A DNA stretch of 64,000 bases from assembly GCA_047974805.1 (NCBI GenBank), contig JBKECS010000066.1:27133-91132 (forward strand), written 5' to 3'. Below, one piece after another: positions 2,154 to 33,541 of this stretch (position 1 is its first letter; each line of letters starts with the position of its first letter). Position numbers and translations under genes: made by a program. Origin of the DNA: Nostocoides sp. GTDB lineage: Bacteria > Actinomycetota > Actinomycetes > Actinomycetales > Dermatophilaceae. The notes beneath the pieces were generated by a model. It ran no database searches, was not told the DNA's origin, and saw nothing but the letters and a program-made list of their open reading frames with translations.

Positions 2154-3214
2154 TCACTTCCTCGCCTTGACCTTCTCTGGCACAACGAACGTCAAATCTC
2201 CCCCCAATACCTGGGGCTTGCCTTGGTCTGGCACGAAGGTTAGGACAGCGGCAACCCGTTCCTCGGTCACGTCCCCATGTCCGTCCTCCAAGGTTTGACC
2301 GGTCATCTCCCCATAGGCGCCGGGGACGAAGGCAAGATTGTCCGGGCTGGCATGAAACATGGTCGACAGACGATACGAGGACACCACGAGCAGCCCGGTC
2401 TTAGCGCGCACCACTCGAACGGTTCCGGCAGCGCCCGTCACGTAACGATCCCCCGTATAGGGCAGGACCGTAACGTCGAAAAGCCCTCCCTTGCCGGACT
2501 TCAGCCGCCGGACCCGCTCGGTCCAGATCGCCCTGCCGTCATCCTTGGCGCTCACGTCGAGCAGGTTCTCCGAGCGGCCGGTTTCCAGGAATGTCGCAAC
2601 CTGTTCGACCACCGCAATGGCTCGTTCGTTGTCCGCTGCGCTCGGGGTGCTGCTCGTTCCGGGCGGCAACGCCTCGGGGAGTTTGCTGACCTCGGCCCCG
2701 GAACTCATCGCCACCCGCCACGGTTCATCGGCCTCCGATTGGATCAACAGGGTCATCGAGCGCTGGTCCTTATAGACCGGCCCCGGCGTGGTTCCTTGCG
2801 CGTAGACAGTCCCGGCGCTGAGCACGACCCGGGGTACCCCTGGGCAGCAGGTGCGTAGAGGCGGTCTCTCTGGTGAAAAGGGGTGTGGGCTTGTCCTCAC
2901 CGGTCGACTTCACGTACTTCTGCGCCATGGTGAAGAAGTCGTCCCCCATCCAGGACAACTTCCGTGGCGACGGCGCGCCAGCCCGCGGTGGCATACCTGG
3001 GCGGGTACGACGCCGACATGGCCTTGTTGTTCGCCGCGTCATAAGCCGCCCACACCTCGGGCATGTCAGCCAGTGCCAGCGGGGCGCCGTCGTTCACGGG
3101 CGTGGTGGTGGCCAGGCCGCTCGCGCTCCCGCCGGAGCAGCCACCCACTACCGCGCCAACAAGCGCAATTCCGCTGACGCATAGGGCAATTCGTTGATGT
3201 CGTGCACGTGTCAT
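2154..3214 (-). pseudogene. Lipoprotein gene whose coding signal moves through three reading frames (two apparent 1-nt indels)
   Basis: ATG at 3214 gives a lipoprotein signal (MTRARHQRIALCVSGIALVGAVVGGCSGG). High third-position GC and protein-like sequence leave this frame near 2960-2985 and continue in a second frame (KLSWMGDDFFTMAQKYVKSTGEDKPTPLFTRE). They move again near 2825-2850 into the frame of ORF 2154..2900 (VVLSAGTVYAQGTTPGPVYKDQRSMTLLIQSE...). The track lists the three pieces as separate ORFs (2897..3304, 2770..3042, 2154..2900). Confidence 0.5.
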
Positions 3215-3364
3215 GTCGTTCACGCTAGGCAAGACCGGAGACTCCTCGCGCGGCGGATGAGCGATCTGTGGATAACCACCGGCCCGTGGTCCGCGGTCAG
3301 GCACAACGAACGGGCGCCCGGTCGATCAGACCGGGCGCCCGTTGCTGGGTATGCCGTGTGCGGA

Positions 3365-5773
3365 TCAGTCCTCGTCGGAGCCGCTGCCCTCGCCGGACTC
3401 GGAACCGTCGTGGTCACTGTTACCGTGGCCACGACGACGACGGCGGCTGCGCTGACGGCGCTCGCCGTCACCGGAGCCTTCGGCCGCACCATCAGCGGAT
3501 TCGCCGGACCCCTCGTCGGAGCCTTCGCCGGATCCGGCTGAGTCCTGGCCGCCCTGCTCGCTGTTGCCCTCGGGCAGCACGGCCGCCAACGACAGCTTGC
3601 CCCGCGGGTCGATCTCCTTCAGCTCGACCTGGACCTTCTGGCCCACCGAGAGCACATCGTCGACCGAGTCGATCCGCTTGCCGCCGACGAGCTTGCGAAT
3701 CTCGCTAATGTGCAGCAGCCCGTCCTTGCCAGGCAGCAGCGAGATGAAGGCCCCGAACGTCGTGGTCTTCACCACCGTCCCGAGGAACCGCTCGCCGACC
3801 TCAGGCATCTGCGGGTTGGCAATGGCGTTCACCGCTGCCCGGGCCGCCTCGGCCGACGGGCCGTCGGTGGCGCCGATGTAGACCGTGCCGTCATCCTCGA
3901 TGGAGATGTCGGCGCCAGTGTCCTCCTGGATCTGGTTGATCATCTTGCCCTTGGGGCCGATGACCTCACCGATCTTGTCGACCGGCACCTTGACCGAGAT
4001 GACCCGCGGAGCGGTGGCCGCCATCTCATCCGGTGCGTCGATCGCCTCATTCATGACGTCGAGGATGTGGAACCGAGCATCCCGGGCCTGGGTGAGCGCC
4101 CCGGCCAAGACATCGGCGGGGATCCCGTCGAGCTTGGTGTCCAGTTGGATGGCGGTGACGAACTCTCTCGTCCCGGCAACCTTGAAGTCCATGTCGCCGA
4201 AAGCGTCCTCGGCGCCGAGGATGTCGGTCAGCGCCGCATACTGCATCTCACCGTCGATCTGCGCAGACACCAGGCCCATGGCGATGCCTGCGACCGGAGC
4301 ACGCAGCGGCACACCGGCATTGAGCAGCGACAACGTCGAGGCACAAACCGAACCCATTGAGGTCGACCCGTTCGATCCCAGCGCTTCGGAAACCTGGCGG
4401 ATCGCATACGGGAACTCTTCCCGGGTGGGCAGCACCGGCATAAGGGCCCGCTCGGCCAGCGCCCCGTGACCGATCTCGCGGCGCTTGGGTGAACCGACCC
4501 GGCCGGTCTCACCGGTGGAGTACGGCGGGACGTTGTAGTTGTGCATGTAGCGCTTGCGGGTCACCGGGCTCAGGGTGTCCAGCTGCTGCTCCATCCGGAG
4601 CATGTTCAGCGTGGTGACGCCCATGATCTGGGTCTCGCCGCGCTCGAACAGCGCGCTGCCGTGCACCCGCGGGAGCACCTCGACCTCGGCCGAGAGGGCC
4701 CGGATGTCGGCCAGGCCGCGGCCATCGATGCGGACCTTGTCGCGCAAGATCCGCTCACGCACGAGCTGCTTCTGCACCGATCGGTATGCCGCCGAGACCT
4801 CGCTGTCGCGGCCCTGGAAGTCCTTGCCCTCACCGCACAGGGCCTCCTTGAGGGCGGCCTTGATCTCGTCGAGCTTGTCCTCGCGCTCCTGCTTGCCGGC
4901 AATGGTCAGCGCAGCGGCGAGCTGGTCGGTCGTGTCCTTGGCCACCCGCTCGTAGACATCGTCGGTGTAGTCGAGAAAGACCGGGAACTCCTCCACCGGC
5001 TTGGCCGCCTGAGCCGCAAGCTGCGACTGCGCCTCGCACAGCACCTTGATGAAGGTCTTGGAGGCCTCCAGACCCTGCGCGACGACCTCTTCGGTGGGAG
5101 CGGTCTTGCCCTGATTCTTCACCAAGCCCCAGGTGGCCTCGGTGGACTCCGCCTCGACCATCATGATCGCCACGTCATCGCTGCCGTCGGCCTTGGTCAC
5201 GACGCGACCGGCGACGACCATGTCGAAGGTGGAGTTCTCGCTGTCGGAGAAGTTCGGGAAGGCGACCCACTGGCCGTCGATGAGCGAGACCCGCACACCG
5301 CCGATCGGGCCGGAGAACGGCAGACCGGAGATTTGGGTCGCTGCGGAGGCGCCGTTGATGGCCAGCACGTCGTACTGGTGGTCGGGGTTGAGCGACAGGA
5401 CGGTGATGACGACCTGGACCTCGTTGCGCAGACCCTTGACGAAGCTCGGTCGCAGCGGCCGGTCGATGAGTCGGCAGGTGAGGATGGCGTCCGTGGACGG
5501 TCGTCCCTCGCGACGGAAGAAGCTTCCGGGGATCTTGCCGGCGGCATACATCCGCTCTTCGACATCCACCGTCAGCGGGAAGAAGTCGAAACCTTCACGG
5601 GGGTGTTTGCCCGCCGTGGTGGTGGCCAGCAGCATGGTTTCGCCGTCGAGATAGGCGGCGACCGCTCCCCCGGCCTGCTTGGCCAGACGTCCGGTCTCGA
5701 ACCTGACGCTCCGGCTGCCGAACCGACCGTTGTCGATGATCGCTTCGGCGAAGGTGATTTCGGGACCCTCCAT
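3365..5773 (-). CDS. pnp: Polyribonucleotide nucleotidyltransferase (PNPase) with a long low-complexity C-terminal tail
   Basis: Two RNase PH-like halves, a KH segment ([17 protein letters not shown]) and an S1 segment ([32 protein letters not shown]). Lies downstream of rpsO, as is usual. Confidence 0.96.
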
Positions 5774-5888: not shown

Positions 5889-5940
5889 CGCCTCAGAGGC
5901 GGGCTCTCCGGAAGGTTTGGAGACACCCGCCTCTGAGGCG
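5889..5940 (-). terminator. rpsO terminator / pnp leader hairpin
   Basis: Perfect 15-bp inverted repeat CGCCTCAGAGGCGGG (5889-5903) / CCCGCCTCTGAGGCG (5926-5940) with a 22-nt loop. It begins 6 nt after the rpsO stop codon and lies upstream of pnp. Confidence 0.7.
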
Positions 5941-5945
5941 CAAGG

Positions 5946-6215
5946 TCATCGGCGCAAGCCCAGGCGCTTGATCAACGAGCGGTAGCGCTCGATGTCGACG
6001 CTCTCGAGGTATCGCAGGAGTCGGCGACGACGGCCGACCAACAGGAGCAGGCCACGACGGCTGTGGTGGTCGTGCTTGTGCTCCCGCGAGTGTTCGGTGA
6101 GGTCCTTGATGCGCTGGGTGAGCAGCGCGATCTGCACCTCGGGAGAACCGGTGTCGCCCTCGACGGTGGCATATTCGGCGATGATCTTCTGCTTGGTGTC
6201 AGCGTCCAGTGGCAT
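5946..6215 (-). CDS. rpsO: 30S ribosomal protein S15
   Basis: 89 aa. [48 protein letters not shown] is the S15 signature region. Confidence 0.96.
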
Positions 6216-6388
6216 GCGCTACCGGCTCCTTGTCACAGTTGTTGCGCGGCGCACCCGGGCCTGTTCACCGGGGCACTATCACTCCGCGGCCGCATCTACG
6301 GCGAGTCAAGGTTACCGCCCACGAACCTCTCTGCGCGAATCGCTTGCGGTAACTGCCCGCCGCGACCGCATCCGTCGCCATTCTCGGT

Positions 6389-6428
6389 GGAGGTTCGTTC
6401 GTGCGCCAGTGCGCACGATGGGACCTCC
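6389..6428 (-). terminator. Possible stem-loop terminator after the amiC-like gene
   Basis: Nested inverted repeats GGAGGT...ACCTCC enclosing TCGTGCGC-cagt-GCGCACGA, about 20 nt after the stop at 6449. No U-tract follows. Confidence 0.3.
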
Positions 6429-6448
6429 AACCGCGCCGTCCACGCGGG

Positions 6449-7588
6449 TCAGCGGCCTCCCGTGCTGACCTGGGCAACGACGTCGAGGCCCACCCCGTTG
6501 GCCGCAGCGAGGTGAACGGGGTGTCGCGCGGCACCGGCATGTAACTCGACCGTGCCGTGGGGAGAGTCCCACGCCCACGAATGGAAGGCGCGCCGAGTGT
6601 CCGGCACGGTGGGGATCGTTCGCCCCGCAATGCTGGTGAGCAGGTGTACGCCCGAGTACGTGGTCTCGGCCATGGTTCCTGGCTCGGGAGCATGCGACTC
6701 CACCAGCGGCTCGGTGCCGCACACGAGATCCCAGGCCCGCTTGAAGTTCCTGCTGAACTCGTTCGCTGAGGCCGTTCGCAGTGAGGAGAACCAACCGGCC
6801 GAGACGAACAAGTTAGCGGTGGCCTCGGGACCGGTCGCCAAGACCACTGTCTCGTCAATGAACGGGCTGAACCGGATGATCGCACCGGCCATATCGGCGG
6901 ACGCAAAGGCCCGGTTGAAACGCACGGCGTCCGAGCCCACGAGCAAGGTGATGACACCCCGAGCTCCGCTGCTGCGGATGTCCTCCAGCACGCTGGCCCA
7001 CACGATGGGGTCCTCGGTGCCGAGGGGCACAAACCGCTGGCGGACGATCTCGGCGTCACGCTCGCACAGGCCCTCATGGGTGCGCGCCGCCGTCTCTCGA
7101 GGCCACACATAGTCGTTGCCAATGAGGTACCACCTGCGCAGGCGAAGCTCGGTGCGGAACCAGTCGAGGGAGGCCAGGATCTGGTCCCCGGGCACCTCAC
7201 CGCTACACAACACCCCGTCGTGGCGCTCCCCGCCTTCGTAGGCAGCGGCATACACATAGGGGATCCGGCCTTGGACTACCCGCGCAATGGACTGGCGCAC
7301 GTTGGACAGGTGCCATCCAGTCACCGCGTCGATCTGGTTGGCGTCCAAGAGCGCCTTGATGTGGCGTCCGACAGCGTCCGGCTCTCCGCCAGCATCGACT
7401 TCGACATAGCTGATGGATCGCCCAGCCACCCCTCCAGCTGCGTCGACCTCGGCGGCGGCCAGCTCGGCGGCGGCGAGGCATTCCAGTCCGAAGATCCCCG
7501 CCGGTCCATGCCTGGGCAGCACCAACGCGACGCGGAATTCACTCTCTGACCGGTTCGACACACCTTCGCGCCACGGAACGCTTGCCAT
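6449..7588 (-). CDS. amiC: AmiC-like amide-binding regulator (type 1 periplasmic-binding fold, cytoplasmic)
   Basis: No signal peptide. The segments AAAYEGGE and IGNDYVWPRE match, by eye, the P. aeruginosa AmiC segments YEGFE and IGSDYIYPRE. It is divergent from MarR-fmdB-amiS-amidase, as in the M. smegmatis acetamidase locus. Start chosen at MASVPW (7588); the track ORF extends to 7684. Confidence 0.75.
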   Translation of the reverse strand: MASVPWREGVSNRSESEFRVALVLPRHGPAGIFGLECLAAAELAAAEVDAAGGVAGRSISYVEVDAGGEPDAVGRHIKALLDANQIDAVTGWHLSNVRQSIARVVQGRIPYVYAAAYEGGERHDGVLCSGEVPGDQILASLDWFRTELRLRRWYLIGNDYVWPRETAARTHEGLCERDAEIVRQRFVPLGTEDPIVWASVLEDIRSSGARGVITLLVGSDAVRFNRAFASADMAGAIIRFSPFIDETVVLATGPEATANLFVSAGWFSSLRTASANEFSRNFKRAWDLVCGTEPLVESHAPEPGTMAETTYSGVHLLTSIAGRTIPTVPDTRRAFHSWAWDSPHGTVELHAGAARHPVHLAAANGVGLDVVAQVSTGGR

Positions 7589-23989: not shown

Positions 23990-24925
23990 TCAGAGGTGCC
24001 CGCCCGGGCTGCAGCCCCAGGCTGAGGTCGTGCCGTCGGGCAGATAGCAGGCCACGGCCTTGGCGCTCTCGGTGTTGCAGTAGTACTGGTTCGCCACCGG
24101 ACGGCAGGAGGTGAACCCGTTGGCGGTCGAGGACACCGTGCCGGAGCAGGACGTGACCGCGCTGGAGGTGTCGATCGACGCGGTCAGGGTGCAGCAGGCG
24201 CCGGAGCCGTAATAGTTCGTCCCGGTTCCGCCGAGCGTGGTGCAGCCGGCGTTTTGGGTCTGGGCGAAGTTGGGACTGAACGAGACCCCGAAGCATCGAT
24301 AGAAGACCCCCGTGTCCATATCCGGCCCCCAGATGTGGGTCGGGCACCAGGCGTCGTTGAAGGTCAGCGTGAACGTATTGCTCGCACCTTCGACCCAGCC
24401 ACTCAGCCCGGAGCACATCGCGGTGGTCTGGGTCTTGGCATACGCGGTGGGGACCGGGTCGGTGAAGCCCGTCCCGGGATAGCACGGGTTGTAGGGGTAG
24501 TTGCACGGGCCGGGTGTCGGCGTCGCGTAGTGGTTCGTGTAGGGAGCCTGGTAGCTCATGATCCAGCACGAGCAACCCAGCCCGTTAGCGCAGGTGTAGC
24601 TGAAGGTGATGATCGTGCCCTTGGGGATGCAGTCATCATTGACCGTCGCCACGGTCTGGGTCGCGCCAGCGTTGTCGCAGTTGGGACAGATCTGGAACCA
24701 GGCCCGGGTCGTGCGGGTCGAGCCCGGGATCCCGTTGGAGATCTGCTCACAAAACCACGAGCTGCATCCGGCGATGTCGGGACAATCGGGCAGGCTGGCC
24801 GAGGACGCCAGCGCGGGGGTGGCGCCGGCGACGACGACGGTGGGCACGGCCCATGCCGATCCTCGCATGACCGAGCGGCGGCGAACACCTGGTGTCGAAT
24901 TCGTGGCAGGAGCGTCAGTGGTCAT
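23990..24925 (-). CDS. Secreted cysteine-rich protein with a twin-arginine-like signal (unknown function)
   Basis: MTTDAPATNSTPGVRRRSVMRGSAWAVPTVVVAGATPALA signal. I count 22 Cys in the ~270-aa mature part, including CxC and CC pairs. No family recognised. Confidence 0.6.
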   Translation of the reverse strand: MTTDAPATNSTPGVRRRSVMRGSAWAVPTVVVAGATPALASSASLPDCPDIAGCSSWFCEQISNGIPGSTRTTRAWFQICPNCDNAGATQTVATVNDDCIPKGTIITFSYTCANGLGCSCWIMSYQAPYTNHYATPTPGPCNYPYNPCYPGTGFTDPVPTAYAKTQTTAMCSGLSGWVEGASNTFTLTFNDAWCPTHIWGPDMDTGVFYRCFGVSFSPNFAQTQNAGCTTLGGTGTNYYGSGACCTLTASIDTSSAVTSCSGTVSSTANGFTSCRPVANQYYCNTESAKAVACYLPDGTTSAWGCSPGGHL

Positions 24926-29401: not shown

Positions 29402-29419
29402 ACGGTATGAGGTGACTGG

Positions 29420-30202
29420 CTAGTGGGTGCTGTGGTCGCGTCCCAGCCTGCGCAGGTGCGCCGCCGCGAGACCAACAAGGACCCCCAACCAGACGGCGAC
29501 GCTGATGGCATACGGTGTCGGATTGTCATGGCGGGCACCTGGTAGGCCCCGTCCGATGCTCGACCCGCTGAGTAGCCGCCATAGCCCGCCGAGGGGGTGA
29601 AGCACCAGGTACGCGCCATACTCAGGCACGATGAGCAGCGCGGCGAAAGACGCCCCAGCGGCTGTTGCGACCACGATGGCACGAGTTCCCGATTCGGCCG
29701 CCAGGAACAAGCACCACGCCAGCGCAACAGCGACACAGATGACTACGGGTCCCAACGCGGCAACCGTGAACATGTAGGCGGGTGGGATCATGGGTACTGC
29801 GGGATGACTGGTGAGGGCACGAAAGGCCATATCGCCCTGTGCTCCCAAGCCAGCCGAGAGCAGAACGACCAGCCATGATGCACACCCAGCGATAGCCGCG
29901 ACGAGGGCCTGGGCGATGGCGATTGTCCTTGGGTTCTCTCCGTGCTGGAGGCGCTCAGGGAACCGGCCACTGTCCAGGTCAGCACCGAGGAGCATCGCCA
30001 GCGCGGCCAGAGCGACGACAACACCTACCCCCGCACCGAGGAAGCCGCCATTGACGACGCCCCATTGACCTAGCGTTTCGGGGTCACCGTTGAGCCACAC
30101 AGGGGTGAGAACGGCGACCGAAGCCGCCATCAACGCGACGGGCAAGGCAACCCAGACAAGTCCTGGTTGGGCACGGGTACGCCACTCATTCCAGGTCGCC
30201 AT
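29420..30202 (-). CDS. Multi-pass membrane protein (ABC-2 permease-like), last gene of the island
   Basis: About 6 hydrophobic helices. Start chosen at MATWNEW (30202) so that it does not overlap the upstream gene. Confidence 0.55.
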   Translation of the reverse strand: MATWNEWRTRAQPGLVWVALPVALMAASVAVLTPVWLNGDPETLGQWGVVNGGFLGAGVGVVVALAALAMLLGADLDSGRFPERLQHGENPRTIAIAQALVAAIAGCASWLVVLLSAGLGAQGDMAFRALTSHPAVPMIPPAYMFTVAALGPVVICVAVALAWCLFLAAESGTRAIVVATAAGASFAALLIVPEYGAYLVLHPLGGLWRLLSGSSIGRGLPGARHDNPTPYAISVAVWLGVLVGLAAAHLRRLGRDHSTH

Positions 30203-30213
30203 GGCCAGCGTGC

Positions 30214-31404
30214 TCACGGACTGGCGCACGGCTGTTCGGCAATGGAAGCCACGCGCCATGCTCGGTCAGGATGCACCAGGCACGCGTGGAAAGCGTGTCC
30301 ATCGATATCGATAAGCAGGTCAGCGGCACGGATCGTTGGTGAGGAGTGCACGCTCACAATGGCGTTTCGGGTGGCCTGGGCGAAGTTGGCTGGCAGGCTG
30401 ACCATGATGACGCCAGCAGCACCCGTGACCGCGAGCTTGTCGGCGCTCGTCACCCGGCCGGCCGCATAGAACGTCAAGAACTGACGAAGGGTCGCCTCGG
30501 CACCTATGCCGCGCTGCACCTGGACATGGGTGGAATACCGCGCGGGGTACGGCACCGCCTCACCCATCGTCGGTCCGGCGCACATAAGAACCGCGGAGAC
30601 GATCAAGCAGCCTGAGACCCATCGTCTGCGCGTGCGTGTACTGGCGCGGGCCAAGCCCCACCGAGAATGCGCTGCCCCTTCGTAAGGGCGTCTCCCGACA
30701 AGGCGCAGTTCCTCGACCGGTTCCCTCGTGCGCAAGATCACGACACACGCCAGCCATGATCCTGCCACGCTCATCCCCGACAGGAGGCTCACGAAAACAC
30801 CGCTGCCGTTGCCCGGCGGAATCACCGAAACGGCCGAAATGGGCGACAGCGCTAGCACGAGAGTTCGACCGGACAATCGGGGACCAAACCACGCCATCAA
30901 CGGCACCAGGCACACTGTCACGGTCAACGCGACTGCGGCGGATCTCCTCCGGCCCCAGGACAGAACCGTCGCCCACCCGACAGCTGTAGGCACGGCAAGA
31001 TAGGTCAAGGTGATGATGGGCCAGGCCGCCGCGGAAGCGAATCTTTCCTCAGGCTGAGTGTGCAGGCGGGACGCCGCAAGCGCCGTGAGGGTGATGGCGA
31101 GTGTCGCGCCAGTCACGGTAAGCAGGAGGGTCAGGAATATTCGTGACCGGAAGGCACGCGCCGAAGTCCCGGCAAGATGGTTGCCGGTCTCCGCCGCCGC
31201 TTCCGTCGAGGCACCCCACACCGAGGCCACCAACAACACCCCAGCAGTCCCAGAGAACACCGACGCCACAGACGACGCCCCCGACAATGCAAGCTCCAAG
31301 CTTGGGGCACCAATTGCCCAGACAACACCACACGCGATCACCGTGGCGACAACAAGGACCCAAAAAGCGACCTCACGTCGCATCACCGCGACGGCGCCCC
31401 TCAT
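30214..31404 (-). CDS. Multi-pass membrane protein with an extra anchored C-terminal soluble domain
   Basis: About 7 helices, an Arg-rich loop, one more helix, then a ~120-aa non-hydrophobic domain (YPARYSTHVQVQRGIG...HPDRAWRVASIAEQ). The ATG overlaps the ATPase stop (ATGA at 31401-31404). Confidence 0.6.
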   Translation of the reverse strand: MRGAVAVMRREVAFWVLVVATVIACGVVWAIGAPSLELALSGASSVASVFSGTAGVLLVASVWGASTEAAAETGNHLAGTSARAFRSRIFLTLLLTVTGATLAITLTALAASRLHTQPEERFASAAAWPIITLTYLAVPTAVGWATVLSWGRRRSAAVALTVTVCLVPLMAWFGPRLSGRTLVLALSPISAVSVIPPGNGSGVFVSLLSGMSVAGSWLACVVILRTREPVEELRLVGRRPYEGAAHSRWGLARASTRTRRRWVSGCLIVSAVLMCAGPTMGEAVPYPARYSTHVQVQRGIGAEATLRQFLTFYAAGRVTSADKLAVTGAAGVIMVSLPANFAQATRNAIVSVHSSPTIRAADLLIDIDGHAFHACLVHPDRAWRVASIAEQPCASP

Positions 31405-32162
31405 GAAGGACCGGTGATCACAGCGTCGTCGGTTGGGGGATTCCTTCGACTGACGACGGAGAAATAGAGGTCTTCAAGGTTGGTCACGGCCGAAATGTCA
31501 GCCATCAACCCAGCAGCCAACATCTGACCGCGATTCAGTAGGGCGTAGTTGGTGGCTACCTGCTGGACCTCGTGCAAGAGGTGGCTGGAGACAATGATGG
31601 TCCGCCCTTCAGACCTCAGCTCGAGAATTAGCGTGCTCAGCCATCGGATCCCGAGCGGGTCCAGACCGTTCGTCGGTTCGTCCAGAATGATCAGACCCGC
31701 ATCAGCGAGCAGGACACGCGCGATCCCGAGGCGCTGGCGCATGCCCTGGCTGAACTCTCCCACGGGTTTGTTACCGACTTCGTCAAGACCGACCCGTTCC
31801 AACACCTCCTGGCAAACTGTCTTGGCCAGACGCTGAGTAACAAAGACGCTTCGCAGGTTCTCCAGCGCAGTGAGCCGATTGAACAAGCGTGGTTCCTCGA
31901 CCAGGCCGGCGACCCTCGGAGTGGGAGTGTAGGGCCGAACAGCACCACTGGCCCATGCGATGTGGCCCTGGTCGGGGCGCACGCTCGCCAGGATGCATCG
32001 CAGTAGCGTCGTCTTGCCCGAACCATTCGCCCCCACTAGCCCCAGACAAGCACCGCGGGCCACCTCGATGTCCACCGGGCCCAAGGTGAAGGCTGCGCCT
32101 CTGGACTTCACCAGTCCGGTGATCGTCAGGCCTCCGGTGCCGACGGGAGTTCCTGATGCCAC
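31401..32162 (-). CDS. ABC transporter ATP-binding protein
   Basis: Walker A GANGSGKTTLL, signature FSQGMRQR, Walker B LIILDEPTNGLD and H-loop VSSHLL. GTG at 32162 is preceded by GGAGGGGAGGG. Confidence 0.85.
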   Translation of the reverse strand: MASGTPVGTGGLTITGLVKSRGAAFTLGPVDIEVARGACLGLVGANGSGKTTLLRCILASVRPDQGHIAWASGAVRPYTPTPRVAGLVEEPRLFNRLTALENLRSVFVTQRLAKTVCQEVLERVGLDEVGNKPVGEFSQGMRQRLGIARVLLADAGLIILDEPTNGLDPLGIRWLSTLILELRSEGRTIIVSSHLLHEVQQVATNYALLNRGQMLAAGLMADISAVTNLEDLYFSVVSRRNPPTDDAVITGPS

Positions 32163-32701
32163 GTCACCCTCCCCTCCATATCGGCAAGCACGAATCCTCC
32201 CGATGAAAGGAACCGCACCGAGGCGGCCCCCGGGTACGTGTGCAACGTCTTCCCGGTTTGGTCGTAGATTGTCACTGCATGTCCAAACACCACAGTGCTC
32301 TTCGAGACGCGGCACTGCGCATCACCCGTGGCCTCGGCCGGCAGCGGAATCTCACGCTCCTTCACGGTGAAGACGTTCCCGATAACGGCGCGGGACCCGT
32401 CGACGCTGGTGCAAGCCCGCATCCCACGTGTCGGTGTTACCACCCAACCGGTCTTGGTCAGCCGCACCAAGTAGACCAGGCTTTGGGTCGGATCCTCCGT
32501 AAAGGCGACGATCTGGCCGGACTGATCACCGTCGTCCATCGTGATTGATGACTCAGGAATTGGCAGGGCATACCGATGTATGGATCCGTCGGCATGCAAC
32601 GACTCCAGGGTGCCCACGCCCCTGGCGTCTGACACCGTGCGCAGGGATCCCCCCGGATCAACCGACAGGATGATGTTCACACCCCCGTGGGTTGCTCCCA
32701 C
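32126..32701 (-). CDS. Orphan 191-aa protein (no signal peptide, no recognisable domain)
   Basis: ORF with a GTG start, beta-rich-looking sequence and acceptable third-position GC. Directly upstream of the ABC ATPase, with a short overlap. Confidence 0.45.
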   Translation of the reverse strand: MGATHGGVNIILSVDPGGSLRTVSDARGVGTLESLHADGSIHRYALPIPESSITMDDGDQSGQIVAFTEDPTQSLVYLVRLTKTGWVVTPTRGMRACTSVDGSRAVIGNVFTVKEREIPLPAEATGDAQCRVSKSTVVFGHAVTIYDQTGKTLHTYPGAASVRFLSSGGFVLADMEGRVTWHQELPSAPEA

Positions 32702-32901
32702 CGGACAGGCAACCTTCCCGATCCATACAACGCGGGGGCAGGGTCTGCCTCCAACCCGTGAGAATCGCCGGTCAACACTGCCGCGGGACCGTGCCTAACA
32801 CACGATTGTTGGACTCGTCAGCCGCGCGCCGTTTCTTGCCACACGGTAAGACCTGAACGAGTCACGCCCCGGGCCACACTATCGACCATGACGACCGCAC
32901 C

Positions 32902-33084
32902 CTAGCTGTCGGCGCGAAGGATGGTCGGCGCGGCGTCCAGCCAGGTCATGTCCACCGTGACCTCAGGGGGAGCCTCGCTGTCCTGCTGTCCAAACGTCAG
33001 GTAGAGGACGAAGGCTCCGACACAACTGGCAACGAAGGCACCAACGGCTAGCCGCACAATCCTGGGACTATCCGGTCGGGCCAT
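32902..33084 (-). CDS. 60-aa single-pass membrane protein
   Basis: MARPDSPRIVRLAVGAFVASCVGAFVLYLTFGQQ: one hydrophobic helix followed by an acidic tail. The ATG overlaps the end of the upstream peptide ORF. Confidence 0.4.
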   Translation of the reverse strand: MARPDSPRIVRLAVGAFVASCVGAFVLYLTFGQQDSEAPPEVTVDMTWLDAAPTILRADS

Positions 33085-33333
33085 GGCTCAGGTGCCGCCT
33101 CGCCGAGTTCAGTAGAGCCAAGAGATTGCACTCGCGTCGAGAGCTCCCATTGTCATACCAGGTGTTGAACCCCGACGCGGAATACGCACGTCCCGCAGCG
33201 CTCGCGCTGCAGGACTTGACCGTTGTTGAGTTGTACGAGGCAAAAGCGACGCCCGTACTGCCTCCCATCAAGGCAGCAACTGCCACCGTGACCGCAGCTG
33301 CCCCCCCTTTGACAAACGTGGGAAAATGTTCAT
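33068..33333 (-). CDS. Candidate small secreted peptide precursor, frame interrupted at a G7 tract
   Basis: GGGAGGG, then 4 nt, then ATG (33333) opens MNIFPRLSKGG. This frame stops after 22 codons. One extra G in the G7 run (plus-strand C7 at 33301-33307) would continue as AAAVTVAVAALMGGSTGVAFA/SYNSTTVKSCSAS...RREC...HGPTG, the frame of track ORF 33068..33286. That gives a classic Sec signal plus a ~56-aa mature peptide with 2 Cys. Confidence 0.4.
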
Positions 33334-33489
33334 AAATCCCTCCCGATTCTTCACAGTGATGGCCCGCGTCCCGGAGACACCATGCTCGTGGTTGACCCGG
33401 CGATCACCGGTGACGAGGTATGACGTTATCCCGCCGACGGCTGAGGTTCCACCGGAACGGGCCGTATCCACGATTCCGCCTTCCGGCCA

Positions 33490-33524
33490 AACACTGATGA
33501 GATCGTGCGATGGTCATCAGTGTT
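33490..33524. promoter_or_regulatory. 11-bp perfect inverted repeat between plsC and the peptide island (terminator or operator)
   Basis: AACACTGATGA (33490-33500) / TCATCAGTGTT (33514-33524) with a 13-nt spacer. It is AT-rich for this genome and lies 18 nt after the plsC stop. Confidence 0.4.
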
Positions 33525-33541
33525 GCAGGCGAAGGCCGACC

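Follow-up and report, generated by a model that had tools for sequence, protein, structure and literature searches.

Is a run of seven G residues near the start of a small open reading frame (ORF) a phase switch, a slippage site, a sequencing error, or the mark of a gene that is no longer a gene? This question is raised by a locus in a draft genome of Nostocoides sp. (NCBI GenBank assembly GCA_047974805.1, contig JBKECS010000066.1, positions 27,133 to 91,132). The whole stretch of 64,000 nucleotides that was analysed is referred to as the window, and the coordinates of the locus are positions within it. An earlier note, made from the letters alone, described a frame that opens behind a strong Shine-Dalgarno sequence, soon meets a stop, and continues at the G7 run in the -1 frame as a signal peptide with a 56-aa mature peptide. 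Phase switching, ribosomal or transcriptional slippage, and sequencing error were proposed there as possible causes.

The layout agrees with that description to the base. A Shine-Dalgarno sequence GGGAGGG (33344-33338, minus strand) is separated by the 4-nt spacer ATTT from an ATG (33333-33331). This ATG opens frame A (33268-33333, minus strand), which reads MNIFPRLSKGGQLRSRWQLLP and consists of the ATG, 20 codons and a TGA stop (33270-33268), i.e. 21 amino acids and the stop, or 22 codons. The G7 homopolymer (33301-33307, minus strand; C7 on the plus strand) occupies codons 9-11 of frame A, starting at the third base of an AAG codon. By sequence reading and frame logic it is the site of the frame break and has an out-of-frame length. 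The heptamer G_GGG_GGG stands in the X_XXY_YYZ phase of frame A, so a zero-frame slippery heptamer is present. Frame B continues from a GCA at 33301 with AAAVTVAVAALMGGSTGVAFA, followed by SYNSTTVKSC..., and ends at a TAG (33070-33068). It is open over 111 codons and, as had also been stated, has no ATG of its own; its sole ATG, GTG or TTG start is a GTG at 33286. One extra G in the tract unites both frames into a product of 88 aa, composed of a putative n-h-c signal peptide of 32 aa with AFA at its end, and of 56 more residues.

A first possibility is that there is no gene here, and that the two frames are a chance pair of ORFs in an intergenic stretch. Frame B has a neutral codon-usage score (-4 bits), the score of the opposite strand is slightly higher, and the gene has no match in Pfam or large databases. 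The frame on the opposite strand is a 69-aa antisense ORF (33126-33335, plus strand) with a codon-usage score of +3 bits, as compared to -4 for the sense frame; we read this score as an effect of Ser/Ala/Asn-rich composition and not as a sign of a gene. A scan for promoters and terminators found nothing. Codon-usage scoring is uninformative for this gene, because the whole island in which it lies is compositionally foreign (see below). The GC3 of frame B (0.69), however, agrees with that of the rest of the island (~0.72), and frame B shares homology and gene order with two other cassettes. The probability that this is a chance arrangement appears very low.

The united frames, termed gene 1 in the following, are the first gene of a five-gene cassette, in which the gene for a predicted secreted protein is joined by genes for a membrane-anchored protein, an ABC ATPase of LanF-like type and a pair of membrane proteins. 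A homologue of the 191-aa ORF of the window was found in one of 151 sampled family genomes (G168), where the genes (membrane-anchored protein, ABC ATPase, two membrane proteins) stand in the same order as in the window. A small ORF beside these genes starts with an ATG behind a GGGAGG Shine-Dalgarno sequence; its product, which has an apparently complete signal peptide and the motif KSC...FSYSAGG, is matched by the window product in BLASTP (E=3e-6). A third copy was found with a two-sequence profile (E=4e-8) in Knoellia remsis (G270; Intrasporangiaceae). The K. remsis cassette is intact, and its products are the secreted protein (145 aa), the membrane-anchored protein (362 aa), the ATPase (237 aa) and two membrane proteins (386 and 263 aa). 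All five window genes are syntenic with this cassette and with the G168 copy.

Both homologues have features of their own. In K. remsis the cassette is inserted between carA and carB, genes that are usually adjacent, which is an unusual site inside the pyrimidine biosynthesis operon. The public annotation of K. remsis gene 1 comprises 72 aa from an internal Met (3742-3960 of a K. remsis stretch in which the C7 run described below lies at ~3535-3541), and the Logan call comprises 121 aa. Because the conserved signal peptide and the KSC region lie upstream of both shorter calls, the 145-aa ORF (3523-3960) is likely the real gene 1, and the public annotation is likely mis-started. Gene 1 of G168 is broken by two IS elements (G168:C51:17000-31000, 2586-5622), namely an ISL3-type element (4134-5622) with the 8-bp target duplication GGGTAACT, and an IS3-type element (~2586-4061) without a clear duplication. 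When its flanks are rejoined, a protein of ~160 aa results, the C-terminus of which (GGDNR...ADMDAVAAFRATC) agrees with K. remsis. The gene is divergent from the remaining cassette, not co-directional. Gene 2 of G168 consists of two ORFs (105 and 260 aa; 5914-7010) that overlap in GTGA, and homology to the single K. remsis gene 2 protein spans their junction; this gene may be frameshifted too, or it may represent a coupled gene pair.

The cassette family is undescribed and very rare. Three carriers were found in total (the Nostocoides window genome, G168 and K. remsis), all of them among 401 genomes sampled from the family. The window genome is the only match in 401 genomes of the order, and K. 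remsis the only one in 18 Knoellia species. Pattern and profile scans of genome and metagenome contig collections retrieved no further copies, and exact look-ups of the cassette proteins of the window genome matched no other dataset. Large protein sets contained no match to the joined 88-aa product or to the 145-aa K. remsis protein, where the public calls of K. remsis gene 1 (72 or 121 aa) probably fall outside the length filter of these searches. For gene 1, gene 2 and both membrane proteins, the Pfam and NCBIfam libraries yielded no more than a weak CARDB hint (E=0.23). Single-sequence AlphaFold2 prediction of the K. remsis gene 1 protein was unusable (pLDDT 36.8). Some candidates were discarded: a HMMER scan of frame B against 1.84 billion representatives returned long repetitive proteins only, which were read as compositional matches, and weak profile matches in two further genomes (G103 and G421) were inspected and judged spurious.

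In both homologues, a complete signal peptide and a conserved KSC...YSAxG region stand in a single frame behind an ATG. The signal peptides, judged by eye, end in ...GVAFA before S in the window product, in ...GVAMA before A in G168, and in ...APWAMG before D in K. remsis. Since the n-region, the h/c-region and the mature part share one frame in both homologues, frames A and B were once a single ORF, as had been proposed for the n-region and the downstream part. The split pattern is beyond chance, since the joined product finds its match in gene 1 of two syntenic cassettes; on this comparison, frames A and B are two parts of what was once one gene. The N-terminus of frame A (M-x-x-F-P) is similar to that of the K. 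remsis protein (MRLSFPP), and only the first ~11 codons of frame A, i.e. the n-region, are ancestral coding sequence. The frame change must fall in the first ~12 codons, and the G7 is the only long run prone to slippage there.

A single additional G would, however, not restore a full-length member of this family. The full-length mature protein of the family comprises ~120 aa. As judged by BLASTP, profile match, tblastn and three-way alignment, frame B is a remnant (33068-33301, minus strand) that contains the h/c-region of the signal peptide, the AFA site and 56 residues. Its resemblance to the family stops near ...SSRREC (~33135). According to tblastn and three-way alignment, the C-terminal ~70-80 residues of the family (GGDNR...ADMDAVxAxRAxC) are absent from all window frames; this block is present in K. 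remsis and in the rejoined gene 1 of G168. The supposed 56-aa mature peptide does not stand up to the three-way alignment, by which it is a truncated remnant of the ~120-aa mature protein. With two homologues for comparison, it is conceivable that the form of 88 aa is a naturally short variant and did not arise by truncation.

Gene 2 (32126-33084, minus strand) is a pseudogene by alignment to the K. remsis protein, and is the homologue of the 362-aa membrane-anchored protein. It contains an in-frame TAG (32904-32902), a TGA (32820-32818) and a frameshift at a G5 run (32686-32682) with a deficit of one G. The 60-aa and 191-aa ORFs of the window and the 200-nt stretch between them (32702-32901) are pieces of gene 2; this stretch is the middle of the pseudogene and is readable in the frame of the 60-aa ORF past the TAG and the TGA. 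As is characteristic of pseudogenes, frames are disrupted relative to the intact K. remsis homologue and conserved parts are lost.

The ABC transporter ATPase (31401-32150, minus strand) is intact; its best family match is TIGR03740, at a score below the cut-off (see below). The 396-aa membrane protein (30214-31404, minus strand) is intact and colinear with the 386-aa K. remsis protein, of which residues 1-385 of 386 align. The 279-aa membrane protein (29420-30259, minus strand) is likewise intact and colinear with the 263-aa K. remsis protein. All three genes are full length, each aligning to its K. remsis counterpart in one HSP. All five lesions of the cassette fall within the first ~507 of its ~1393 codon-equivalents (~36%), for which a uniform model gives P ~0.006 by our own arithmetic. 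This distribution suggests that the pump has been kept while genes 1 and 2 decay, and the three transporter genes may have been retained by selection.

The cassette forms an island of ~4.1 kb (29402-33541) between a DUF4916 gene and plsC-valS, as delimited by composition and by an empty site. GC3 in the island is ~0.72, as compared to ~0.85 in the core genes valS and plsC, and in another genome of the same genus (G001) the DUF4916 gene directly adjoins plsC-valS. Composition and empty site point to horizontal acquisition of the cassette.

We consider it probable that the G7 truly exists with this out-of-frame length, and that it lies in the 5' end of a pseudogene within a decaying imported cassette. 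A possible course of events would begin with the horizontal gain of a cassette encoding a Sec-secreted protein of ~120 aa, a membrane-anchored protein of ~360 aa, a LanF-like ATPase and two membrane proteins. A change of the tract length by one base, most simply by slipped-strand mispairing at replication, would then have separated the ATG and the n-region from the remaining signal peptide, and ribosomes starting at 33333 would now stop after 21 codons. The resulting off state would not be part of a working switch, with the C-terminal half of gene 1 lost, gene 2 dead and the transporter genes alone intact. The order of these lesions, and any function of the cassette, are what we infer from the present state of the locus.

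This account depends on the tract length being correct. Were it a sequencing or assembly error, the organism would have G8, and its gene 1 would be in frame at the 5' end. Such errors classically occur at homopolymers, the window genome is a draft in 100 contigs, and both frameshifts of the island are single-G deficits in G runs (the G7, and the G5 at 32686-32682), which is also the signature of homopolymer undercalling. G/C runs of at least 7 are not rare in this genome (121 in 3.03 Mb; 66.9% GC). Among the classifiable G/C7 tracts 25 are in frame, and the two flagged frame changes are ordinary gene junctions. Hence, no classifiable G7 tract breaks a gene, and the genome-wide rate of frame changes at G/C runs of at least 6 equals the rate at random positions, so that there is no excess which would speak for systematic miscalling. 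Moreover, two nonsense codons and a missing 3' half cannot come from homopolymer errors, and the locus is therefore decaying in any case. We regard an erroneous tract as very unlikely; the indirect evidence favours a real G7 in the window genome, from which we infer the reality of the tract length.

The same tract might also serve programmed recoding, where -1 ribosomal frameshifting on G_GGG_GGG or transcriptional slippage yields the full precursor. The tract has exactly the X_XXY_YYZ phase, and a -1 shift leads into frame B. However, the 86 nt downstream form no significant structure (MFE -30.3 kcal/mol, as compared to -27.1 +/- 3.4 for shuffles; z = -0.93), the homologues are single-frame, and it is the length of the DNA tract that decides on the in-frame state in K. 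remsis. All-G heptamers are not known as efficient slippery sites in bacteria, which we counted against recoding. The locus thus gives no sign of the ribosomal or transcriptional slippage that had been proposed, and we consider such a mechanism extremely improbable.

Phase switching requires a separate look at the K. remsis orthologue, which has a homopolymer of its own. Gene 1 starts there with ATG AGG CTC TCT TTC CCC CCC GTA, with a C7 run at codons 5-7 (PVTI01000005.1, ~24233-24239). This run aligns with TTC CCA of the window and not with the G7; the two tracts are therefore independent. The NCBI assembly and the Logan assembly of SRR4235378 have C7, which is in frame. Four other runs (ERR14836128, ERR14836129, ERR14836130 and ERR14866756) have C8, which is out of frame. 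Over 2150 aligned bases the contigs of ERR14836129 and ERR14836130 equal the NCBI assembly, the tract excepted, and both downstream membrane proteins on the ERR14836129 contig are 100% identical to the NCBI versions; for ERR14836128 and ERR14866756 the comparison comprises only the sequence around the tract. As a control served a 378-aa K. remsis gene with two other 7-base G/C tracts, the exact product of which is found in ERR14836128, -129 and -130 (one ENA assembly carrying this gene is labelled metagenome). The control tracts being unchanged, these three datasets do not systematically miscall such tracts. The contig of ERR14836134 ends within gene 1, 182 nt upstream of gene 2, and does not reach the tract, which could be due to low coverage or to an assembly break from tract heterogeneity.

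Runs of exactly seven G/C are scarce in the K. remsis genome (22 per 3.6 Mb), and two of the three family members have a G/C tract of at least 7 within the first 11 codons. The chance that two given members each bear such a run in the first 33 nt is of the order of 1e-7 to 1e-6 by our post hoc estimate. The K. remsis tract varies in length, and the remaining cassette is identical between C7 and C8 datasets where compared. From these sequences, the C7/C8 difference looks like a real tract-length polymorphism, i.e. a hallmark of phase variation, and phase variation is plausible for the family.

Could the window genome itself still contain a live switch, in which the tract toggles between G7 and G8, and a functional peptide of 56 aa is secreted by those cells that have G8? 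In favour of this, the tract is situated at the 5' end, and a one-base change restores a complete signal peptide. The K. remsis orthologue differs between datasets (C7 as opposed to C8) at unchanged control tracts, tracts of at least 7 G/C occur in the first 11 codons of two of three family members at the low background frequency given above, and switching at a G7 tract is documented for glpK of Mycobacterium tuberculosis (PMC6667613). However, the restored window product would still be without the conserved C-terminal half of the family, and the adjacent partner gene 2 is irreversibly broken. A contingency gene is an otherwise intact gene, and the window copy is not. A live switch in the window genome is unlikely. 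The phase switch of the earlier note is thus supported at the level of the family, where K. remsis has C7 in one dataset and C8 in four runs, and is opposed in the window genome by the truncated gene 1 and the dead gene 2.

A wider version of this idea is that gene 1 is a true contingency gene in environmental Intrasporangiaceae, where independent 5' tracts in different lineages switch export and the LanFEG-like transporter stays constitutively intact. We put this forward tentatively, at somewhat less than even chances. If it were true, the system would be e.g. an antagonistic or surface protein that can be switched, paired with a pump for self-protection that is fixed, and the window would be an end state, in which the switch was locked off and then decayed.

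For the annotation of the window, the preferred reading as a pseudogene in a decaying cassette means that the G7 marks a pseudogene, not a hidden peptide gene, and that the 60-aa ORF, the 191-aa ORF and the intervening "non-coding" gap are one broken gene. Across the family, gene 1 has been knocked out repeatedly (two lineages have tract frameshifts, the third has IS insertions), with pump genes intact throughout. This pattern fits an evolution in which the product is lost and the protection is kept. Combined with the C7/C8 polymorphism, it offers a testable case for homopolymer phase variation beyond the usual pathogens.

The split gene may be compared with several known systems. Like the genes dnaX and IS3 transposase with their -1 frameshifting, the window gene has a heptamer in X_XXY_YYZ phase and a second frame without its own start. 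Unlike in these systems, there is no stimulatory structure, and the split is not conserved, the in-frame alleles of the homologues being single ORFs.

In M. tuberculosis, a one-base change in the G7 tract of glpK switches the gene off and on, with reversibility and phenotype shown (PMC6667613; bioRxiv 10.1101/717272; PMC10334774), and more than 100 genes of this species have such homopolymeric tracts (PMC6667613). Gene 1 resembles glpK by its run of seven G/C in the 5' part of the ORF, and in the K. remsis orthologue the tract is likewise expanded by one base (C7 to C8), with no other difference found between datasets. Unlike glpK, gene 1 is an orphan gene of a secreted protein known from sequence only, and its window copy has further, irreversible lesions.

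The contingency loci of Neisseria, Haemophilus and Campylobacter have poly-G/C tracts in genes of surface or secreted proteins. Gene 1 shares with these classical loci an exported product, a tract close to the 5' end, tracts that are independent across members, and frequent off alleles. It differs from them in belonging to environmental Intrasporangiaceae and in being represented by three loci.

LanFEG transporters are encoded by one ATPase gene followed by two membrane-protein genes. The cassette resembles this layout, as two membrane-protein genes follow the ATPase gene in all three loci, beside a gene for a small exported product. Among 193 families, the best match of the window ATPase is TIGR03740, the lantibiotic-protection ATPase (E=4e-51), with 173.8 bits, which is far below the curated cut-off of 309.75. 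Unlike in LanFEG systems, the membrane proteins match no family of Pfam or NCBIfam, the signal peptide of gene 1 would be of the Sec type and not a lantibiotic leader, and modification enzymes are missing. Because the ATPase is nearest to lantibiotic-protection ATPases and the layout is LanFEG-like, we would guess, with low confidence and by analogy, that the cassette may pair an exported antagonistic or surface protein with an exporter for self-protection.
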